From a virus, in the IMG/VR virus record IMGVR_UViG_3300009954_000001, positions 1 through 49,454 of that record: a stretch of 49,454 nt of DNA. The stretch is one strand, 5' to 3'. The notes under the pieces were generated by a model. The model searched no databases and was not told where the DNA came from. It saw only the letters and a program-made list of their open reading frames with translations. Within the stretch, counting starts at the first letter, position 1. Each line of letters opens with the position of its first letter. Positions 1-42,709 of this stretch are shown piece by piece. Made by a program: the position numbers and the translations under genes.

Positions 1-127
1 ACTTAAAGGCTGGTTTGCGCTTACGCCTGGCTTCACCGCCTACGATGCCGCAAAGTGGGCACAGCGCGCCGAGCGCGCGGCGCACGGCGACCGACAGGCC
101 ATCGCTCAGCTCGATGGGGCCGGCTTC
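1..127. repeat. Terminal redundancy, copy 1 (identical to 49328-49454)
   Basis: Read directly: acttaaaggctggtttgcgc...gatggggccggcttc is present at both window ends, 127/127 identical. An ORF reads through it, so it behaves as a circular-assembly overlap. Confidence 0.95.
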
Positions 128-145
128 GCCCTGGCGGTCCTCTGA
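1..145 (+). CDS. 3' part of a 75-aa hypothetical protein (5' part at 49245-49454)
   Basis: The frame opened by ATG 49245 continues through the repeat. The first full codon here starts at base 2 and the stop is TGA 143-145. Confidence 0.5.
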   Translation, partial: LKGWFALTPGFTAYDAAKWAQRAERAAHGDRQAIAQLDGAGFALAVL

Positions 146-302
146 CCCTCACGCCGCGTTGGGCAACACACGTGTGGCTTGCGCCTGACGGGCACCTGTT
201 ATGTGAGCGAGTCTGACATTGCTCAGATGCCCTTGACCGTCACACCTGAGCGCTTTAAGCAGCTCCACCGCTAAGCAGTGACACACATCACAACCTAACA
301 AT

Positions 303-332
303 TTGACAACCGCCTAGCACCGCTGCTAGGCT
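303..332 (+). promoter_or_regulatory. Candidate early promoter TTGACA-18-TAGGCT
   Basis: TTGACA at 303-308 and TAGGCT (TANNNT) at 327-332, intergenic, about 40 nt upstream of ATG 370. It shares the extended TTGACAAC box with sites at 1834, 4565 and 12075. Confidence 0.45.
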
Positions 333-369
333 GAAAGCACAAGCCAACCACAGAGAAAGCGAAAGCACC

Positions 370-663
370 ATGCGAGACACAATCCACGCGACAGTCACCA
401 AGTGGACCGAGTACCGTACCACTAGCGGGCGGTGGTCAAAGGTCCGACACGATGAAACCGAGAAAGATTTTAAGCCGCACAACCTGCGCAATTTCTTCGA
501 TGCAAAGTTCCCGGGTGAATGGCGCGGTTACGCATACACCATGCACGGATACCTACCCGTTAGTGTGACCGTCCCGTCGCCCGATGGAAGCGAACGCCGC
601 GTGTATCGTTTCGACTACTACACCGGCCAGCGTGAGGTCACTTCGTACACGTACGAAGACTAG
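370..663 (+). CDS. Hypothetical early protein (97 aa)
   Basis: ATG ORF preceded by a purine-rich gaaagcgaaag stretch. No recognisable motifs. Confidence 0.6.
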   Translation: MRDTIHATVTKWTEYRTTSGRWSKVRHDETEKDFKPHNLRNFFDAKFPGEWRGYAYTMHGYLPVSVTVPSPDGSERRVYRFDYYTGQREVTSYTYED

Positions 664-675
664 CCGTCTTCAACT

Positions 676-723
676 TCCACGCATCAATGGCGATAAAGCT
701 GGGTTCGATCCCCGGGCGTGGAA
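676..723 (+). ncRNA. Armless tRNA-like minihelix (acceptor stem + T-arm, no anticodon arm)
   Basis: tccacgc 676-682 pairs with gcgtgga 716-722 (7/7). The ctggg/cccgg stem closes T-loop TTCGATC 704-710. A723 sits at the discriminator position. Only 16 nt lie between the acceptor 5' strand and the T-arm. Confidence 0.35.
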
Positions 724-774
724 CGATGCGACACAAGTCGCACAAACCACCAACAAACCGGAAGGTTAATTAAC

Positions 775-1032
775 ATGGCACACACCTACAAGACGGACCC
801 CTGGCACGTCAAAGAAGCGCGCGGGGCGGCGTGGCATCCCACGCAGTTCGCCCGCGAACACTCGCCCTACACTAAGGCGCGCCGGGACCTGAGTAAGCGT
901 ATCCGCGCCCGTGAACGCCGCGAAATGGACCGCATCATGCGCGATATTGAAGCGTGGGAGGACTACTACCCTACGGGCGTGACGCTGCGAGAGTTCGCAA
1001 CCGATACCAACCGTGACGGTTGGCAGTACTGA
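775..1032 (+). CDS. Hypothetical protein (85 aa), Arg/Glu-rich
   Basis: ATG 775 with GGAAGG 10 nt upstream. The longer 718 start would overlap the structured element. Confidence 0.6.
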   Translation: MAHTYKTDPWHVKEARGAAWHPTQFAREHSPYTKARRDLSKRIRARERREMDRIMRDIEAWEDYYPTGVTLREFATDTNRDGWQY

Positions 1033-1092
1033 CCAATAACCGCTAGGGACGGGGGTTAACGCCCCCGCCCCCACACAGAAAGACTAGAGACA

Positions 1093-1467
1093 ATGGGTAT
1101 TCTCGAAAACATTGATAGCGCCGCATGGGACTTGGAACACGGGCGCATTGACAGCCTGTATCCAGTTAGCAACAACTTTACTATTGTTCCTGACTATGAT
1201 GGGAATATTGGTGAAACTAACTATAGTGTGTTTTCTTACACTACGCTAGTCGCACGTGTCATTTTGGACGACGACGATAGGGAGCCTTGCACGGTACTTG
1301 TTGAACAGGATGCGTTTCACCATTCCATTACTACTAGCCGACACTTGCGCCGTTTCTTGTCGGCAATGGTTGGCCGTGTTGACTTTAACGCACTTTACAA
1401 GGCGTGCGACCGTGAACGTGTTGACGGTAACAGAGTGCGCTTTATCAATGTTAGGGAGGTCGCCTAA
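1093..1467 (+). CDS. Hypothetical protein (124 aa)
   Basis: ATG ORF. Its stop overlaps the next start (TAATG). Confidence 0.65.
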   Translation: MGILENIDSAAWDLEHGRIDSLYPVSNNFTIVPDYDGNIGETNYSVFSYTTLVARVILDDDDREPCTVLVEQDAFHHSITTSRHLRRFLSAMVGRVDFNALYKACDRERVDGNRVRFINVREVA

Positions 1468-1829
1468 TGACTATCGAAAGTGCCTTGCAAGGTATCTACC
1501 CTAACCAGATCGTTGCTGAGCCTGTTCGCCTTGGTAGCAAGTTATATCTCACGATGAATCACAATGACCTAGCGCACAATTGGATTAGCTACTGGGTATC
1601 TAGGGAGGACACAAACGAAATTATCTTCAAGTTTAACCCTAGTGGCACTGTGTACGTATACAACGACGTTACGCTAACGCCACATGAGAAACGGGTCATT
1701 AGGAAGATTATCAGCATGTGGCGCGAACACATGCGCCCTGACTGGCAGACTTTCGAGAGTATGCGCGCGCATCCTGCGTGCATCGAGTCAGCCACAACCC
1801 TAGTGCCTGTAGTGCACAACACATTCTGA
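1467..1829 (+). CDS. Hypothetical protein (120 aa)
   Basis: ATG overlaps the upstream stop, suggesting translational coupling. Confidence 0.65.
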   Translation: MTIESALQGIYPNQIVAEPVRLGSKLYLTMNHNDLAHNWISYWVSREDTNEIIFKFNPSGTVYVYNDVTLTPHEKRVIRKIISMWREHMRPDWQTFESMRAHPACIESATTLVPVVHNTF

Positions 1830-1833
1830 CAAC

Positions 1834-1862
1834 TTGACAACAACCGATCAAAAACCTACACT
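1834..1862 (+). promoter_or_regulatory. Candidate promoter TTGACA-17-TACACT
   Basis: TTGACA 1834-1839 and TACACT 1857-1862, in the gap between 1829 and 1907. Confidence 0.45.
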
Positions 1863-1906
1863 AGAAGCATGGGCACAAGCCAACGACAGAAAGAGAGACA
1901 CAAATC

Positions 1907-2086
1907 ATGCGAATCAACAAGGACACTATGCAGGTTATCAAGGCCGCTACAGCCGCTAAGATCACATTTCGAAAGATGGGAGCCGACTACGGGGACAACC
2001 CTAGCGTGCTTGCCGCTATTGACGCGGTTGTGACTGCCCTTGACGGCCTGTCGGATGCGGTAGTTATGAGCGAGATCGAAGCGTGA
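1907..2086 (+). CDS. Hypothetical small protein (59 aa, below the ORF-track cutoff)
   Basis: ATG 1907 after agaaagagaga, in frame to TGA 2084-2086. It fills an otherwise empty + strand gap, and the listed antisense ORF 1856-2089 is less likely. Confidence 0.45.
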   Translation: MRINKDTMQVIKAATAAKITFRKMGADYGDNPSVLAAIDAVVTALDGLSDAVVMSEIEA

Positions 2087-2088
2087 CA

Positions 2089-2283
2089 ATGGAGCTGACT
2101 TGGGAGCAGATGGACTTTATTCGTATCGCGCTTGAAGCCCATATTGACGCGCTACGCAAGGATGCGGCGGCACTTGGTGAACCACTCGTTACCGAGACAA
2201 TTGAAGAACGCATTGACAAGATAGGACCCGTGTATGACGCACTAGTATCTGGTGACTGTGTTCTCATTCTGGAAGAATACTAG
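2089..2283 (+). CDS. Hypothetical acidic protein (64 aa)
   Basis: ATG 2089 (GTG 2083 is an alternative), abutting the previous stop. Confidence 0.55.
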   Translation: MELTWEQMDFIRIALEAHIDALRKDAAALGEPLVTETIEERIDKIGPVYDALVSGDCVLILEEY

Positions 2284-2298
2284 CCTAGTTAACTAGGC
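2283..2298. repeat. Perfect 16-bp palindrome GCCTAGTTAACTAGGC
   Basis: Read directly. It overlaps the stop codon of 2089-2283. A third AACTAGGC half-site lies at 2348-2355. Confidence 0.85.
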
Positions 2299-2299
2299 A

Positions 2300-2348
2300 T
2301 CCCTAGCCTGTCGGTAGGTAAATGCAGGTTCAACCCCTGCCTAGGGAA
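2300..2348 (+). ncRNA. Second armless tRNA-like minihelix
   Basis: tccctag 2300-2306 pairs with ctaggga 2341-2347 (7/7). The gcagg/cctgc stem closes T-loop TTCAACC 2329-2335. A2348 sits at the discriminator position. The internal segment is 17 nt (cct-gtcggt-agg hairpin plus taaat). Confidence 0.35.
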
Positions 2349-2396
2349 CTAGGCTAACCAAGGTGGTTAGCTTTCAACAACCGAGAGGTAGAAACC

Positions 2397-2861
2397 ATGT
2401 GCAATGAGTACGCATACCAGGTAGCTAAGGAACTCATCTACCCTGAACTCACTGTTGAGTTCGCTGCCGACGTTATCAATGGCTACGTTTACGGTAGTCA
2501 GATCTGGGACGAGGTTTGCACTCTGACCGGCGGTTGGTGCAATGACGCTAATGTGTTCCTCGCATGGGACAAAATGGGCCGTCCTGAGGAATGGGATTAC
2601 CTGCCTGGTGACTACGATCTGGAACGTGACCCGGCCCGTAGGCGCGCAATGGTCGCCAATGCCCGTATCTCTGCAATGGCCGAAACGGTGGCAGAAGCGC
2701 TGTACGATGTCGTTAATGAGACTGTCGTTAACGAGGGTTGGAAGTGCGTGCCCGCTAACGAGATTAACGAGGATATGCACGGCGTTGGTTGGCTTGAGGA
2801 AGGTTGCGACGCATTGGACGTTTACACCGAAAGTTACCTGTTTAAGCCTAACGGAAAGTGA
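2397..2861 (+). CDS. Hypothetical protein (154 aa)
   Basis: ATG ORF with gagaggtag upstream. Confidence 0.65.
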   Translation: MCNEYAYQVAKELIYPELTVEFAADVINGYVYGSQIWDEVCTLTGGWCNDANVFLAWDKMGRPEEWDYLPGDYDLERDPARRRAMVANARISAMAETVAEALYDVVNETVVNEGWKCVPANEINEDMHGVGWLEEGCDALDVYTESYLFKPNGK

Positions 2862-2869
2862 GAACTAAC

Positions 2870-3112
2870 ATGTTGCCTAATTGGTATGGTATCCCCGGTA
2901 TCGGCTTTGAGTGGCGTGGTTCCCAAAGTGACCCGATGTTGCATTACAAGGGGCATGTGTTTAACGCCCATGACATGCAAGATGGGTTGTGGGAGAACTA
3001 CCAGGAAGATCTGGAAACAGGGTATACGTCCCTTGAGTGGGAGGAATATGTCAGGGACAACGCAACTGACTACCTTGACGATGCACTATTTTTTGAGCGG
3101 GAGGAATGGTAA
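2870..3112 (+). CDS. Hypothetical protein (80 aa)
   Basis: ATG 2870 after gaaagtgag. GTG 2858 is an alternative start. Confidence 0.6.
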   Translation: MLPNWYGIPGIGFEWRGSQSDPMLHYKGHVFNAHDMQDGLWENYQEDLETGYTSLEWEEYVRDNATDYLDDALFFEREEW

Positions 3113-6432: not shown

Positions 6433-7848
6433 ATGACATTCAAGCCGCGCCATTACCAGGAACGTGTACTGGAAGGGCTGGCAAACTCTAAAACGCCGTA
6501 CACGGGCCTGGTAGGCGCGGGCCTCGGTACGGGCAAGACGGCAATTAGCGTGTGGAATGCACTTAACGCTTTCGGTAGTGCTATCGGGGAACAGATTATC
6601 CTCGTTGTCGCCCCTGTCCGTACCGAGTCTGGTTGGCGCTCGCACTGGAAGACGCTTGCGGGCATCGACATGCGCACGCTGTCTGGTAAGAAAACCAAGG
6701 CCGCGCTTGCAGTGTGGGACGATCTGGAAAACCATGTGCCCGGCGTGTACTTTATTACGTGGGAGCTTATGCGGTCCCGTAATAAGGAAAAGCGCTGGGA
6801 CGGTCGCGCCAAAAAATACGTCTTCAAGTCAATGGCTAAGCCGTTCTACGGTGTGAACTTTGGGATGGTTATTGCCGACGAATGGCACCGCGCGTGCAAC
6901 CACTCGTCGCTCAACTTTGACGTGGCACGCCACATTAAGTCTCAGTACCGCCTCGCACTGTCGGCAACGCCCGCTGGGAACAAACCCTGCAACATCTGGG
7001 CTGCACTGAAGTTCCTATGGCCTAACCACTACGGTGGATACTGGGACTTCTGTGAGAAGTTCTTTAAGGTGGAAGTCAATCCCTGGTCGGCCTATGGGAA
7101 AGATTTTTCGGGAGAGCGATCGCCCGGCATGGTCCGTCGTGGAGCGCCGTCCTATCACGATGTTTCACAGGCCGAGGCTAACCCTGAGCTGCCCGGCGTG
7201 ATCATCCACCGCGTGGAAGTCGAACTGTCCCGCGCGCAACGCAAGGCGTACGACGAACTGGAACAGAAGGCACTCACGTTCCTGGGAGAATACCCACTTG
7301 CACTGTCTATCCCGATGGAGCTTGACCTGCGTCTGCGACAGATGACGCTGGGAGTCCCCTCGTTTAACGAAGACGAGGCTGTCGATTACAAGGAAGACTG
7401 CAAGTCGTCCAAGCTGGACGCAATGATGGATATTATTGCGGACCTTCCTGAAGATGAGCCTGTCGTTGTGTGGGTGCATAGCCAGAAGTTCATTAAGGCG
7501 GCGCTGTACCGTCTGAAGAAAGCCGGTATTAAGGCCATTGAAGTCTCTGGCAAGTCGCGCGGTGACTTCCATGCCATGATCGACGGTGACGTGCGCGTCA
7601 CCGTCGCTCAACATGAGGCCATGTCAGAAGGGGTTGACGGACTTCAGCGAGTCTGTCATACTGAGATATGGCTGAGTCAGTCTAACAGCCTGGTGATTAA
7701 CGAACAGGCTACGGGACGGATTAACCGACAAGGTCAGACTACGGCTGTTAACCGTTTCCTGATTCAGGCGACTGACACGGTAGATGACCGTGTTCTGGGA
7801 CGCTTGCAGGAGCGTTTCGACAAGCTCAAGGCATCTGGCCTTATCTGA
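6433..7848 (+). CDS. SNF2-family (DExH) helicase
   Basis: Motif I GAGLGTGKT, motif II VIADEWHR, motif III LALSATP and motif VI GRINRQGQ. Confidence 0.85.
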   Translation: MTFKPRHYQERVLEGLANSKTPYTGLVGAGLGTGKTAISVWNALNAFGSAIGEQIILVVAPVRTESGWRSHWKTLAGIDMRTLSGKKTKAALAVWDDLENHVPGVYFITWELMRSRNKEKRWDGRAKKYVFKSMAKPFYGVNFGMVIADEWHRACNHSSLNFDVARHIKSQYRLALSATPAGNKPCNIWAALKFLWPNHYGGYWDFCEKFFKVEVNPWSAYGKDFSGERSPGMVRRGAPSYHDVSQAEANPELPGVIIHRVEVELSRAQRKAYDELEQKALTFLGEYPLALSIPMELDLRLRQMTLGVPSFNEDEAVDYKEDCKSSKLDAMMDIIADLPEDEPVVVWVHSQKFIKAALYRLKKAGIKAIEVSGKSRGDFHAMIDGDVRVTVAQHEAMSEGVDGLQRVCHTEIWLSQSNSLVINEQATGRINRQGQTTAVNRFLIQATDTVDDRVLGRLQERFDKLKASGLI

Positions 7849-40272: not shown

Positions 40273-41508
40273 TCAGCGAGTCTTGCTGTATCGGCCAACA
40301 CACCAGGCCACAGTCATGGCTGCCGCGCCGAACAGCAGCGACAGAATCCCGATTACAGCAGCCTCAGAGGCAGCACCAGTCTTGGCTAGCTTGGCCTTCG
40401 GGGCCTCAATCGTTGGCGCAGGCTTCGGGGCCGGTGTAGCCTTAGTCGGTGCAGGGATAGGCTCGATCTTGCAAGGCACGCGGTCCTTGTCTCGGTCAGG
40501 GTGAATCGTGCAAGGGGTCTGAGTCGGTGTAGGTGTAGGCTTAGAGGGCTCAGGTTCCGGGGTGGGGGTAGGAGTCGGCTTCGGGTCCTCAGACGGCGTA
40601 GGGGCGGGCTTCACAGTCCCATCGCCGTCGGTGCCTCCGTTAGAGCGTACGGTCGCAGTAGATTCCAGCTTCAGGCCGTTCACCTCGGCGTGGTTCGTCA
40701 CCGAGGTCTGCCCCTCGGGAACCTTCATCTGCTCCGGCGGGTAGGTGATGCAGGTCTTAGACCCTTCAGGCGCGGTGAACTTGATCGTGTTCGCGTCCAC
40801 TTGCGTGGCTGTGACAATCTCAGTTGTGGCCGGGTCCCAGGTTGGGCCTTTGGCGCACTTGACACCGGGAGAGAGTCGGGTATCGAAGTCCTTAATGGTG
40901 TACTCGACACCACCCTCAGCAATAAACTTGATACCCCATCCAACGGTTCCGTTGGAATTGGTCCAACCAAACTTAACGTTGGACGGTTCTGCGTACTCAA
41001 AGTGGGCCGGACCATCACAATCATTCGTGCAGACACCTGTTCCTTCAGCATCACCCCACACGAGCTTCTTCACGACCTCACCATTAAGAGTGATCGTACT
41101 CTCGTTAGTGCCGACAGCAGCGTCCTGAAGGCGCGCACGCGCCCACCATGTACCGCTGACGTTCTCCTTGTCGGCGTAAGCTGCGGGCACCTCCGTGACC
41201 TTGCAGGTCAGTGTCGCCTGATCGGCGACACACTCACCGACGACAGTGCCGTCGTCCAAGGCAAAAGGAAATGAGGCGTTCCACTTGAAGCCACCATCCT
41301 TAGAAGCCACCGTGAACTGCTGTCCGACAGCCAGTCGCTTGGTGGTCCAAGTCCCGCCCACATTGACCTCAGATGAGGTCTGTCGAGACGCGGACGTGGC
41401 CTTCGTGACCTCGGCCTTGATCCCAGGGTTGTCGGCGGCATTAGCAGTAGCAGCAGCTGTAGTAATCATTAGTAGTGCGACACCGGTCGTCGCAAGAAAC
41501 TTCTTCAT
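40273..41508 (-). CDS. Secreted, sortase-anchored (LAKTG) surface protein, adhesin-like
   Basis: ATG 41508 after AAAGGAA. Signal peptide MKKFLATTGVALLMITTAAATANA. Pro/Thr linker PKPTPTPTPEPEPSKPTPTPT. LAKTG followed by a hydrophobic segment and the RYSKTR tail. Confidence 0.8.
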   Translation of the reverse strand: MKKFLATTGVALLMITTAAATANAADNPGIKAEVTKATSASRQTSSEVNVGGTWTTKRLAVGQQFTVASKDGGFKWNASFPFALDDGTVVGECVADQATLTCKVTEVPAAYADKENVSGTWWARARLQDAAVGTNESTITLNGEVVKKLVWGDAEGTGVCTNDCDGPAHFEYAEPSNVKFGWTNSNGTVGWGIKFIAEGGVEYTIKDFDTRLSPGVKCAKGPTWDPATTEIVTATQVDANTIKFTAPEGSKTCITYPPEQMKVPEGQTSVTNHAEVNGLKLESTATVRSNGGTDGDGTVKPAPTPSEDPKPTPTPTPEPEPSKPTPTPTQTPCTIHPDRDKDRVPCKIEPIPAPTKATPAPKPAPTIEAPKAKLAKTGAASEAAVIGILSLLFGAAAMTVAWCVGRYSKTR

Positions 41509-41750
41509 GTTGTTGGTTCCTTTCGTAGTTGTTCGGCCTGACAACATGAAGCATAGCTGACAGGCCGAGTAGTTTACAATAGATAACCACGTGACTCTGC
41601 TCACATAGTATCATCCCCCTACCGAGTATTAGTCGATAGGGGGATGAGTCCTCATGAATTATGAACCCTCATGTAAGGCCAGTACCCGAAAGGACGAACC
41701 CTTCAGTTACTTAATCCTGAGATCAGAGGCGCGCTGTCTCAGGCCGACAA

Positions 41751-42481: not shown

Positions 42482-42553
42482 GTGCTGCTACAGGACTCGA
42501 ACCTGTTCCTTGGCGACTGACACCCCGTTCTTGACCAGTTAAACTAAGCAGCT
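42482..42553 (-). tRNA. tRNA-like gene with a degenerate anticodon stem (possible pseudo-tRNA, loop centre CAG)
   Basis: The T-arm is good (acagg-TTCGAGT-cctgt) and so is the D-arm (gttt/gaac). The acceptor has 6 bp plus an A.A pair at 1:72. The anticodon stem has only 3 of 5 pairs and there is no long variable arm. Confidence 0.4.
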
Positions 42554-42638
42554 TGCCACCTGACCAGGGTAGCCCAGCTCTTCGATGGAAGTCTTGGTCG
42601 TGACACTTTGTGCTATCGAGCAACCTCATCGTCAAGCG

Positions 42639-42709
42639 CTCCCAGACTAGGACTCGAACCTAGTCCGACAGGGCCAGAACCTGCCGTGCTGCCATTACAC
42701 TATCTGGGA
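42639..42709 (-). tRNA. tRNA-Gln (anticodon CTG)
   Basis: Hand fold: acceptor tcccaga/tctggga, D stem gtgt/gcac, anticodon stem gcagg/cctgt with loop ttCTGgc, T-arm ctagg-TTCGAGT-cctag. Confidence 0.85.

Follow-up and report, generated by a model that had tools for sequence, protein, structure and literature searches.

Hairpin-flanked, anticodon-less tRNA-like elements repeated between early genes of phages are candidate signals for tRNA-style punctuation of operons

Two tRNA-like elements in a phage early region

The stretch of DNA analyzed here, referred to as the window, comprises the 49,454 nucleotides (nt) of IMG/VR virus record IMGVR_UViG_3300009954_000001 and looks like the complete ~49-kb genome of a tailed phage. 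Its + strand arm (~0.3-17.2 kb) carries small orphan genes followed by genes for an SNF2-type helicase, a deaminase, an exonuclease, Sak4, a DUF669 protein, a primase and DNA polymerase A, and its - strand arm carries terminase, portal, protease, tail and endolysin genes, three tRNAs and further small genes. Among the first small genes of the + strand arm lie two tRNA-like elements, termed E1 and E2, which on comparative evidence are members of a conserved structured-RNA family read from the sense strand of phage early operons. A sequence-only reading of the window had described E1 (as 676-723) as an armless minihelix of acceptor stem and T-arm, with a second copy of the same architecture and placement at 2300-2348. 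The anatomy given for E1 was confirmed by reading the sequence and by an independent descriptor scan, and the second copy proved to be real, but the label 'armless' has to be given up because a conserved, covarying mini D-arm is present. The parts of the two elements are as follows.

676-724, + strand: E1, tRNA-like element (TCCACGC, ATC-AATGGC-GAT, AAAG, CTGGG-TTCGATC-CCCGG, GCGTGGA, then A and C), from sequence reading and covariance model
676-682 and 716-722, + strand: E1 acceptor stem, TCCACGC/GCGTGGA, 7 bp, perfect
683-694 and 695-698, + strand: the middle 16 nt of E1, mini D-hairpin ATC-AATGGC-GAT and linker AAAG
699-715, + strand: E1 T-arm, stem CTGGG (699-703) and CCCGG (711-715), 5 bp including one G-U, with T-loop TTCGATC (704-710)
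723 and 724, + strand: E1 3' end, unpaired discriminator A723, then C724
2300-2349, + strand: E2, tRNA-like element, from sequence reading and covariance model
2300-2306 and 2341-2347, + strand: E2 acceptor stem, TCCCTAG/CTAGGGA
2307-2318 and 2319-2323, + strand: E2 mini D-hairpin CCT-GTCGGT-AGG and linker TAAAT
2324-2340, 2348 and 2349, + strand: E2 T-arm GCAGG-TTCAACC-CCTGC, discriminator A2348, then C2349

E1 and E2 follow a common plan, namely a 7-bp acceptor stem, a 3-bp hairpin with a GG-bearing 6-nt loop, a linker of 4-5 nt and a 5-bp T-stem. Each copy reads as a tRNA cut down to the parts that tRNA-processing enzymes read, with the anticodon arm gone, and the GG of the mini D-hairpin is predicted to be able to dock on the T-loop and so form the elbow. 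Both strands of the window were scanned with a descriptor consisting of a 7-bp stem, a gap of 8-30 nt, a 5-bp stem and a TTCRANN loop, and apart from the real tRNAs it matched only at E1 and E2; the chance expectation is 0.047 such sites per genome, and two or more sites arose in 0.7% of 300 first-order Markov simulations. Covariance-model scores in the window are 69.9 bits for E2 (E 6e-16) and 52.1 bits for E1 (E 2.5e-11), and the third-best match of the element model is the phage tRNA-Gln at 20 bits. Neither element is called by ARAGORN or by Rfam (gathering and permissive thresholds; 600-2450 at E<=10), and the weak Rfam matches in 600-2450 were dismissed as chance. Folding-energy z-scores against shuffles are weak (-1.4 and -1.7 for E1 and E2) and were not used as evidence; because single-sequence thermodynamics alone is unimpressive, the case for the two elements rests on comparison.

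Conservation and covariation among relatives

IMG/VR contains 23 homologues of gp1, the protein encoded upstream of E1 (74-90% identity), and at every one of these loci that covers the region an element follows a few bases past the stop codon and a second lies 1-2.7 kb further on, both on the gene strand. The E1 subtype ATC-AAYGGY-GAY-AAAG is shared by relatives L049, L026, L057 and others. All three helices occur in paired variants: ACGC/GCGT, CTAG/CTAG, CCCG/CGGG, CTGA/TCAG, CCGC/GCGG and CGGC/GCCG at acceptor positions 4-7; CTGGG/CCCGG, GGTGG/CCACC, GTTGG/CCAAC, ACTGG/CCAGT and AAGGG/CCCTT in the T-stem; and CTT/AAG, CTT/GAG, CCT/AGG, CCT/GGG, CAT/ATG and CGT/ACG in the D-hairpin. Among 25 unique sequences, standard pairs fill 373 of 373 pair cells and 11 of the 15 pairs show double changes, and the covariation score is 0.69, as compared with at most 0.14 in slid registers and 0.18 in shuffles, with none of 500 shuffles reaching 0.69; RNAalifold predicts the same three helices. 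Because this first set had been chosen with a descriptor that itself demands pairing, a covariance model was then searched without that filter, and among the relatives it added a single copy, a degraded E2 in L004. Across 74 distinct model-aligned rows, in an alignment fitted to the model, pairing holds in 99.4% of cells, and compensatory double changes occur in 13 of the 15 pairs. G-U pairs appear solely when the + strand is read. The selection on structure that had been surmised from the two copies is strongly borne out by this covariation.

The hairpins that flank the elements are also found in the relatives. The one upstream of E1 is kept with compensatory variants such as GAAAAC/GTTTTC, and other hairpin sequences occupy the same place downstream of E1. 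Upstream of E2, relatives carry other small hairpins, for example CCCTAACAAGGG, TCCCACATGGGA and TTCCTAACGGAA, and the hairpin downstream of E2 is conserved with compensatory ACTAACC/GGTTAGT variants.

At 10155-11642 of L049 (- strand), the gp1 homologue lies between two elements and downstream of the gp5 homologue instead of leading the region. It looks as if the gene had been relocated along with an element, and elements appear to stand at mosaic junctions.

A wider family arranged in arrays

A census of the family, made with two pattern scans of IMG/VR followed by model searches, yielded 135 unique elements at 81 loci on at least 77 viral contigs. None of the 81 loci has copies on both strands, the elements are co-oriented with their flanking genes, and the median spacing between neighbours is 816 nt. 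The family spans several phage lineages, because many carriers share no detectable protein similarity with the window in the fetched region. There are eight copies in L076, seven each in L096, L101 and L115 (8, 10 and 8 matches, respectively, before the T-loop filter) and six in several others. In L076 an element follows almost every consecutive small open reading frame (ORF) across ~4.5 kb, in the order ORF, element, ORF, element, and the proteins encoded between these elements lack Pfam matches, which is common for early genes. Copies within one array have structure in common and little stem sequence.

The placement is as regular as the architecture. In 99 of 104 unique contexts the element begins 3-24 nt past the stop codon of a co-oriented ORF, and the next start codon, with its ribosome-binding site, follows ~26-60 nt past the element. 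An upstream hairpin of at least 5 bp that ends no more than 5 nt before the element (1-4 nt in most) is present in 69% of contexts vs 23% of controls, and a downstream hairpin of at least 6 bp that starts 2-4 nt past the RC dinucleotide is present in 69% vs 14%. The sequences of these flanking hairpins diverge widely between lineages, with compensatory variants.

One member of an eight-copy array, at 3003-3073 of L086 (- strand), is 71 nt long and has a C1:G72 acceptor together with an additional hairpin in the position that an anticodon arm takes in a tRNA; ARAGORN lists it as an undetermined tRNA (tRNA-???) whose anticodon has 2 nt. This copy may represent a stage in the reduction of a tRNA gene to the present element. 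Given this extra hairpin and the likeness of the elements to tRNA-Gln, it is plausible that they arose from a tRNA gene that lost its anticodon arm.

Invariant bases at the elbow and the acceptor end

The T-loop reads TTCRANY (T54, T55, C56, R57, A58) in 71 of 71 elements, G53:C61 is present in 70 of 71, and the mini D-loop contains GG in 70 of 71, the remaining one, CCTAATGATAGGTTTAAT, having its GG in the stem. The fixed bases T54-T55-C56-R57-A58, G53:C61 and GG are those that build the elbow of a tRNA, and free but compensated variation is seen at acceptor pairs 5-7, at T-stem pairs 49-52 and in the D-stem. Unexpectedly, the upper part of the acceptor stem and its flanks are close to constant as well. 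Pair 1:72 is U:A in 114 of 135 elements and U:A or A:U in 117 (G:C in 9; G:C or C:G in 10), pairs 2:71 and 4:69 are each C:G in 128 of 135, and pair 3:70 is C:G in 69 of 71. Position 73 is a purine in all 132 cases, position 74 is C in 129 of 132 and position 75 is mostly G; CCA is never encoded, and on the 5' side position -2 is a pyrimidine in 169 of 172. These near-fixed bases surround the predicted cleavage sites, at 674-678, 720-725, 2298-2302 and 2345-2350 of the window.

Genes and transcription signals around the elements

The features that surround E1 and E2 in the window are listed below.

303-332, + strand: putative early promoter P1, TTGACA-18 nt-TAGGCT, read by eye upstream of gene 370-663
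370-663, + strand: gp1, orphan early protein of 97 amino acids (aa), from the ORF list; its stop codon, 661-663, lies in the loop of the upstream hairpin
655-671, + strand: hairpin upstream of E1, GAAGAC-TAGCC-GTCTTC, ending 4 nt before E1
727-742, + strand: hairpin downstream of E1, TGCGAC-ACAA-GTCGCA, beginning 4 nt past the discriminator
775-1032, + strand: gp2, next gene in the operon of E1, with ribosome-binding site ggaagg upstream
1834-1862, + strand: promoter-like site P2, TTGACA-17-TACACT, from the consensus scan
1907-2283, + strand: two small orphan genes upstream of E2, 1907-2086 and 2089-2283, with no Pfam or PHROG match
2283-2298, + strand: hairpin upstream of E2, GCCTAG-TTAA-CTAGGC, ending 1 nt before E2
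2351-2373, + strand: hairpin downstream of E2, core GCTAACCA-AGG-TGGTTAGC
2397-2861, + strand: gp7, next gene after E2

E1 starts at the 13th base past the stop codon of gp1, for which no Pfam or PHROG match was found. The earlier proposal of a promoter at 303-332 stands as a motif, and the same TTGACA-18-TAGGCT arrangement is present in L026, but the site falls below the threshold of a consensus promoter scan. In that scan of the window no promoter-like site was found between 663 and 775 or at either element, and the corresponding terminator scan gave no terminator-like site on the + strand at 664-775 or 2284-2396, the sole call there being the 2283-2298 palindrome read on the - strand. The relatives lack T-runs after the downstream hairpin, and an intrinsic-terminator reading was rejected, there being no GC-rich hairpin followed by a T-run at the elements on the + strand. 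Because neither element coincides with a promoter or terminator consensus, both are internal to operons, each separated from a promoter by one or two genes. The assignment of E1 to the 3' end of the first early transcription unit is accordingly abandoned, as no promoter- or terminator-like site separates it from the gene at 775. In the lineage of L040, L054 and L068, an element with its hairpin is followed by a TTGACA promoter, and there the module therefore ends a unit.

Two other structures were noted in these regions. A GC-rich hairpin, GGGGG-TTAACG-CCCCC, lies within 1036-1073 of the window, between gp2 and gp3, and has no T-run and no tRNA-like features; it is an intergenic structure of another kind within the operon. 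A 21-bit variant of the element with a GAGCCG/CGGCTC acceptor and a long middle hairpin lies at 638-703 of L026, directly upstream of the TTGACA-18-TAGGCT promoter, and has no counterpart in window 1-300.

The phage, its tRNAs and its likely host

The real tRNA genes of the phage, for tRNA-Gln, tRNA-Pro and tRNA-Leu, are located at 42.6-43.1 kb on the - strand (ARAGORN, Rfam), set among co-oriented genes. The one most like the elements is the following.

42638-42709, - strand: tRNA-Gln(CUG), with a UCCC...GGGA acceptor, an AATGG D-loop and GC after the stem

A C-G also follows the discriminator in the tRNA-Pro and tRNA-Gln genes. Beside this cluster, at 42483-42553 (- strand), lies a fourth tRNA-like sequence with a good D-arm and T-arm (ACAGG-TTCGAGT-CCTGT), but a poor anticodon arm and mismatched bases A1xA72; a 58-aa ORF overlaps it, and neither ARAGORN nor Rfam calls it. 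Between the lysis genes and the tRNA cluster, the window encodes a 443-aa protein (40273-41604, - strand) with no Pfam or PHROG match.

No megablast match was obtained for window 1-3000 among 50,697 phage records. The nearest cultured phages are lytic-type actinophages that all infect Actinobacteria, the closest being the Arthrobacter phages of the Amigo group (terminase ~42% and primase ~28% identical, replication module syntenic). In Arthrobacter phage Amigo (L095), a model search with filters off found no element in 36000-59173, the early and replication arm. The syntenic replication arm of Amigo has an annotated polynucleotide kinase and RNA ligase, a tRNA-repair-type pair, as well as tRNAs, and neither enzyme is among the scanned window proteins. 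Searches of Pfam and PHROGs with the early proteins of the window and the proteins around the L076 array returned no match and pointed to no partner of the RNA-processing, nucleotidyltransferase, ligase or Ro60-like type; among the larger window proteins scanned, none was an integrase. True matches to the element among 185,579 bacterial and archaeal species genomes were found only on phage-like contigs (~50 kb, and one of 21.8 kb) in metagenome-assembled genomes (MAGs) labelled Actinomyces (4 stretches on 3 contigs), Atopobium (1) and Rothia (1). The other six species-genome matches (WOR-3, Archangium, Streptomyces and others) scored below 14 bits, equal the chance expectation in number and were discarded. 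The IMG/VR carriers include Human Microbiome Project sample numbers, and the host is likely an oral actinobacterium.

Proposed role in punctuating early operons

We propose that the elements are tRNA-like processing signals for host RNase P and the 3' tRNA-processing enzymes and that they punctuate the early operons of these phages, a reading that draws on analogy and to which we give a probability of roughly 0.55. It is known that RNase P recognizes the stack of acceptor and T-stem, measures from the elbow and needs no specific sequence, and that RNase Z and the CCA-adding enzyme likewise register on the elbow (PMC4919913). In the actinobacterium Mycobacterium smegmatis, the tRNA-like module of YrlA, which has a 7-bp acceptor stem, is cut by RNase P and CCA-tailed in vivo (PMC4201824), the t-elements of plant mitochondria form mRNA 5' and 3' ends and accumulate when excised (PMC1920247), and RNase P matures some phage RNAs and cuts polycistronic mRNAs (PMC11143913). 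The presence of real phage tRNAs among co-oriented genes was also counted in favor of the plausibility of the enzymes.

From the structure, conservation, strand, placement and flanking hairpins of the elements we infer a series of cleavages and their consequences. Host RNase P would cut the polycistronic early transcript directly 5' of each element (675/676 and 2299/2300 in the window), and the host 3' tRNA-processing machinery, either RNase Z or an endonuclease together with exonuclease trimming, would cut at or just past the purine discriminator. The upstream message would then end in a small hairpin with a tail of 1-4 nt and resist 3' exonucleases, and the downstream message would open with 3-4 nt followed by a hairpin and resist 5'-end-dependent decay, terminal hairpins being established as stabilizers of mRNA. 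A tRNA-like RNA of ~50 nt would be released and would probably receive CCA, and this mimic may have a function of its own. The net result would be that one promoter gives rise to several independently stable mRNAs whose levels are free to differ. Of the roles suggested earlier, processing that defines mRNA ends is the best supported, because of the flanking hairpins and the one-per-gene arrays, with the cleavage step itself still conjectural.

Several points weigh against this proposal. The near-invariance of the acceptor top and its flanks is not obviously explained by processing alone and hints at a further reader of the acceptor end; none of U1:A72, C2-C4, R73 and C74 is known to be needed by a signal for cleavage alone. 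In bacteria, a U1:A72 pair distinguishes tRNA-Gln and tRNA-Asn, and the GatCAB amidotransferase reads it. About one-fifth of contexts have no clear downstream hairpin. In L004, the second element (7685-7731) lacks its 5' acceptor strand, as well as the hairpin before it, owing to a deletion between a pair of CCTAA direct repeats; this is either a real loss of a single copy or a faulty assembly; with the 5' half of E2 deleted, a given copy would be dispensable, at least in the L004 assembly. Finally, the host is known from MAG bin labels alone, and its repertoire of RNase Z and CCA-adding enzyme is hence only presumed.

Alternative explanations

The constancy of the acceptor end would be accounted for if the excised ~50-nt RNA were itself the selected product, a CCA-tailed, multi-copy early mimic of the acceptor arm and elbow that titrates or misdirects a reader of acceptor ends, with processing as no more than the route of its release, and we hold this to be possible, if doubtful. 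Candidate targets are abortive-infection toxins directed at the 3' end, such as the MenT/AbiEii nucleotidyltransferases and the toxSAS pyrophosphokinases, and GatCAB as the reader of U1:A72. The acceptor top and flanks are conserved past the known needs of a cleavage signal, U:A or A:U occupies 1:72 in 117 of 135 elements as it does in phage tRNA-Gln, the best non-element match of the model, up to eight copies per early operon would provide a high dose early in infection, and defence toxins that inspect or modify the acceptor ends of tRNA do exist, several of which act there (PMC7450476, PMC10435456, PMC11559606). Against this, the target and the defence repertoire of the host are only presumed, the sequence of acceptor positions 5-7 and of the T-stem is free to drift, the phage proteins scanned include no candidate partner with an RNA-related domain, and the design with flanking hairpins is better explained by protection of mRNA ends. 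Because a high early copy number would suit a decoy, a mimic acting in trans, which takes in the MenT/AbiEii decoy suggested earlier, is retained as a minority explanation, alone or beside punctuation. In its fullest form, which we put forward tentatively and think unlikely, the early operons would be a production line for a new class of small RNA, an anticodon-less tRNA mimic with a tRNA-Gln/Asn-type acceptor signature (U1:A72, C2-C4, purine 73, C74) that host tRNA-processing enzymes free in up to eight copies per transcript and furnish with CCA and that serves in trans as a decoy or inhibitor of a host reader of acceptor ends, with punctuation as a by-product or second function. It is improbable, more so than a mimic, that the elements are cis-regulatory RNAs bound by a protein or sensed by the ribosome or RNA polymerase, such as a translational operator, an insulator between cistrons or a factor-dependent terminator or antiterminator, with the tRNA shape incidental or inherited. 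The elements are indeed always intergenic, co-oriented and near an upstream stop and a downstream ribosome-binding site, and in L040, L054 and L068 the module ends a unit before a TTGACA promoter. However, there is no U-tract terminator, the neighbouring genes differ between lineages without detectable homology and hence provide no common regulated gene, and the invariant bases are the universal bases of the tRNA elbow and T-loop, which points to tRNA-recognizing machinery and not to a private protein.

The genes flanking E2 differ among close relatives while the element stays, the gp1 homologue of L049 lies between two elements at a new position, and the same class of element occurs in lineages without detectable protein similarity in the region, all of which would fit a recombination or mobility module that shuffles early genes between phages, or a small self-spreading repeat. 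The promoter-stem-loop cassettes of T4-type phages offer a comparison. Even so, this origin seems to us quite remote, as recombination sites need identity and not compensatory changes, strict strand polarity or the bases of tRNA tertiary contacts, and copies in an array are alike in structure and share little stem sequence, which speaks against recent copying. The shuffling of cassettes is visible and, since it cannot explain the covariation, is treated as a side effect. Least probable of all, and effectively refuted, is a decaying tRNA pseudogene or an attP-type copy of the 3' half of a host tRNA. The T-arm and 3' acceptor strand do look like such a half, and the resemblance to tRNA-Gln could be read in the same way, but the 5' as well as the 3' strand of the acceptor is there, genomes carry 2-8 copies, all 135 unique copies have the one reduced architecture, the helices are held by compensatory changes, acceptor sequences vary among close relatives, the scan of the larger proteins revealed no integrase, and the closest cultured relatives are of the lytic type. 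On these same grounds the random tRNA remnant and the attP copy, which the sequence-only reading had set against selection on structure, are excluded.

Significance

If the elements are cut as proposed, punctuation of early transcripts by these modules would be the first case found of tRNA-style punctuation in bacteriophage operons. A strategy known from mitochondria and from a few eukaryotic and viral RNAs would here rely on a uniform, minimal mimic of tRNA, stripped down to the features read by RNase P, RNase Z and the CCA-adding enzyme, and it would provide a rule for how the early messages of actinobacterial phages gain defined, hairpin-protected ends. The elements may serve as a natural minimal substrate for studies of elbow recognition, and as a compact part (~50 nt and two hairpins) they could be used in synthetic operons to keep cistrons insulated from one another. 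The puzzling constancy of the acceptor end suggests the possibility of mass-made acceptor-arm decoys, which would tie the family to research on tRNA-targeting defence. The family also fills an annotation gap, being invisible to tRNA finders and to Rfam.

Comparison with known systems

Compared with canonical tRNA (RF00005), the elements have the 7-bp acceptor stacked on a 5-bp T-stem, T54-T55-C56-R57-A58, G53:C61 and the D-loop G18-G19, but no four-arm cloverleaf, with just 16-19 nt between the acceptor and T stems. The tRNA-like domain of tmRNA resembles them in having an acceptor, a T-arm and a reduced D-loop and no anticodon arm. It differs in its G3:U70 alanine identity pair, its pseudoknots and its tag reading frame, whereas the elements are ~50 nt long with C:G at 3:70 in 69 of 71, and neither ARAGORN nor Rfam found a tmRNA. 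YrlA is likewise a bacterial or phage-encoded noncoding RNA with an acceptor-like stem, a T-arm and a D-arm and no anticodon arm, but a Ro60-binding stem stands in for its anticodon arm, and it comes from a single gene beside rsr (PMC4201824). No Rfam match to YrlA was found in 600-2450 of the window (E<=10) or in L076, L086, L049 and L038 (E<=1), and the proteins neighbouring the elements have no Pfam match; no Ro60-like protein was seen in the part of the window proteins that was scanned.

The closest class in terms of how the elements would work is that of the plant-mitochondrial t-elements, which have a tRNA-like fold and a GGTTCRANYCC T-arm motif, lie beside mRNA ends and are cis signals for RNase P and RNase Z whose excised form accumulates with non-templated C or CCA (PMC1920247). 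The phage elements have the same motif and are placed after stop codons and before the next ribosome-binding site, a likeness of working and not of homology. The t-elements are organellar, sporadic and irregular remnants of cloverleaves with no homology to the phage family, which is uniform (no anticodon arm, 3-bp D-hairpin), has flanking hairpins and forms arrays of up to eight copies in early operons. The tRNA punctuation of animal mitochondria resembles our proposal in that RNase P and RNase Z cut out tRNA-shaped units lying between the coding regions of one long transcript and thereby release the mRNAs. There the punctuating units are working decoding tRNAs, whereas the phage elements, lacking an anticodon arm, are unable to decode, and the real tRNAs of the phage lie elsewhere (42.6-43.1 kb). 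In the mascRNA of MALAT1 and the TMERs of gammaherpesvirus 68, a tRNA-like fold is the RNase P/RNase Z handle that sets the end of a neighbouring RNA, and in the TMERs hairpins follow the tRNA-like unit. These RNAs differ from the elements in being eukaryotic and nuclear, with a cloverleaf that has a small anticodon stem and with unrelated sequence. The C4 antisense RNA of P1 and P7 and the M3 RNA of phi80 are phage transcripts matured by host RNase P, but they are single regulatory RNAs of enterobacterial phages and not elbow-containing tRNA mimics repeated between genes (PMC11143913).

We found no description of the element in the searchable full-text literature and no Rfam family, and a 2023 catalogue of 10,006 candidate viral structured RNAs, the unnamed entries of which were not compared, has tRNA-like entries only where ARAGORN calls a tRNA. 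Processing elements of tRNA-like shape and tRNA mimics are already known; the novelty here lies in an anticodon-less architecture that is uniform, in a module bracketed by hairpins, in arrays that reach eight copies per operon and in the bacteriophage setting.

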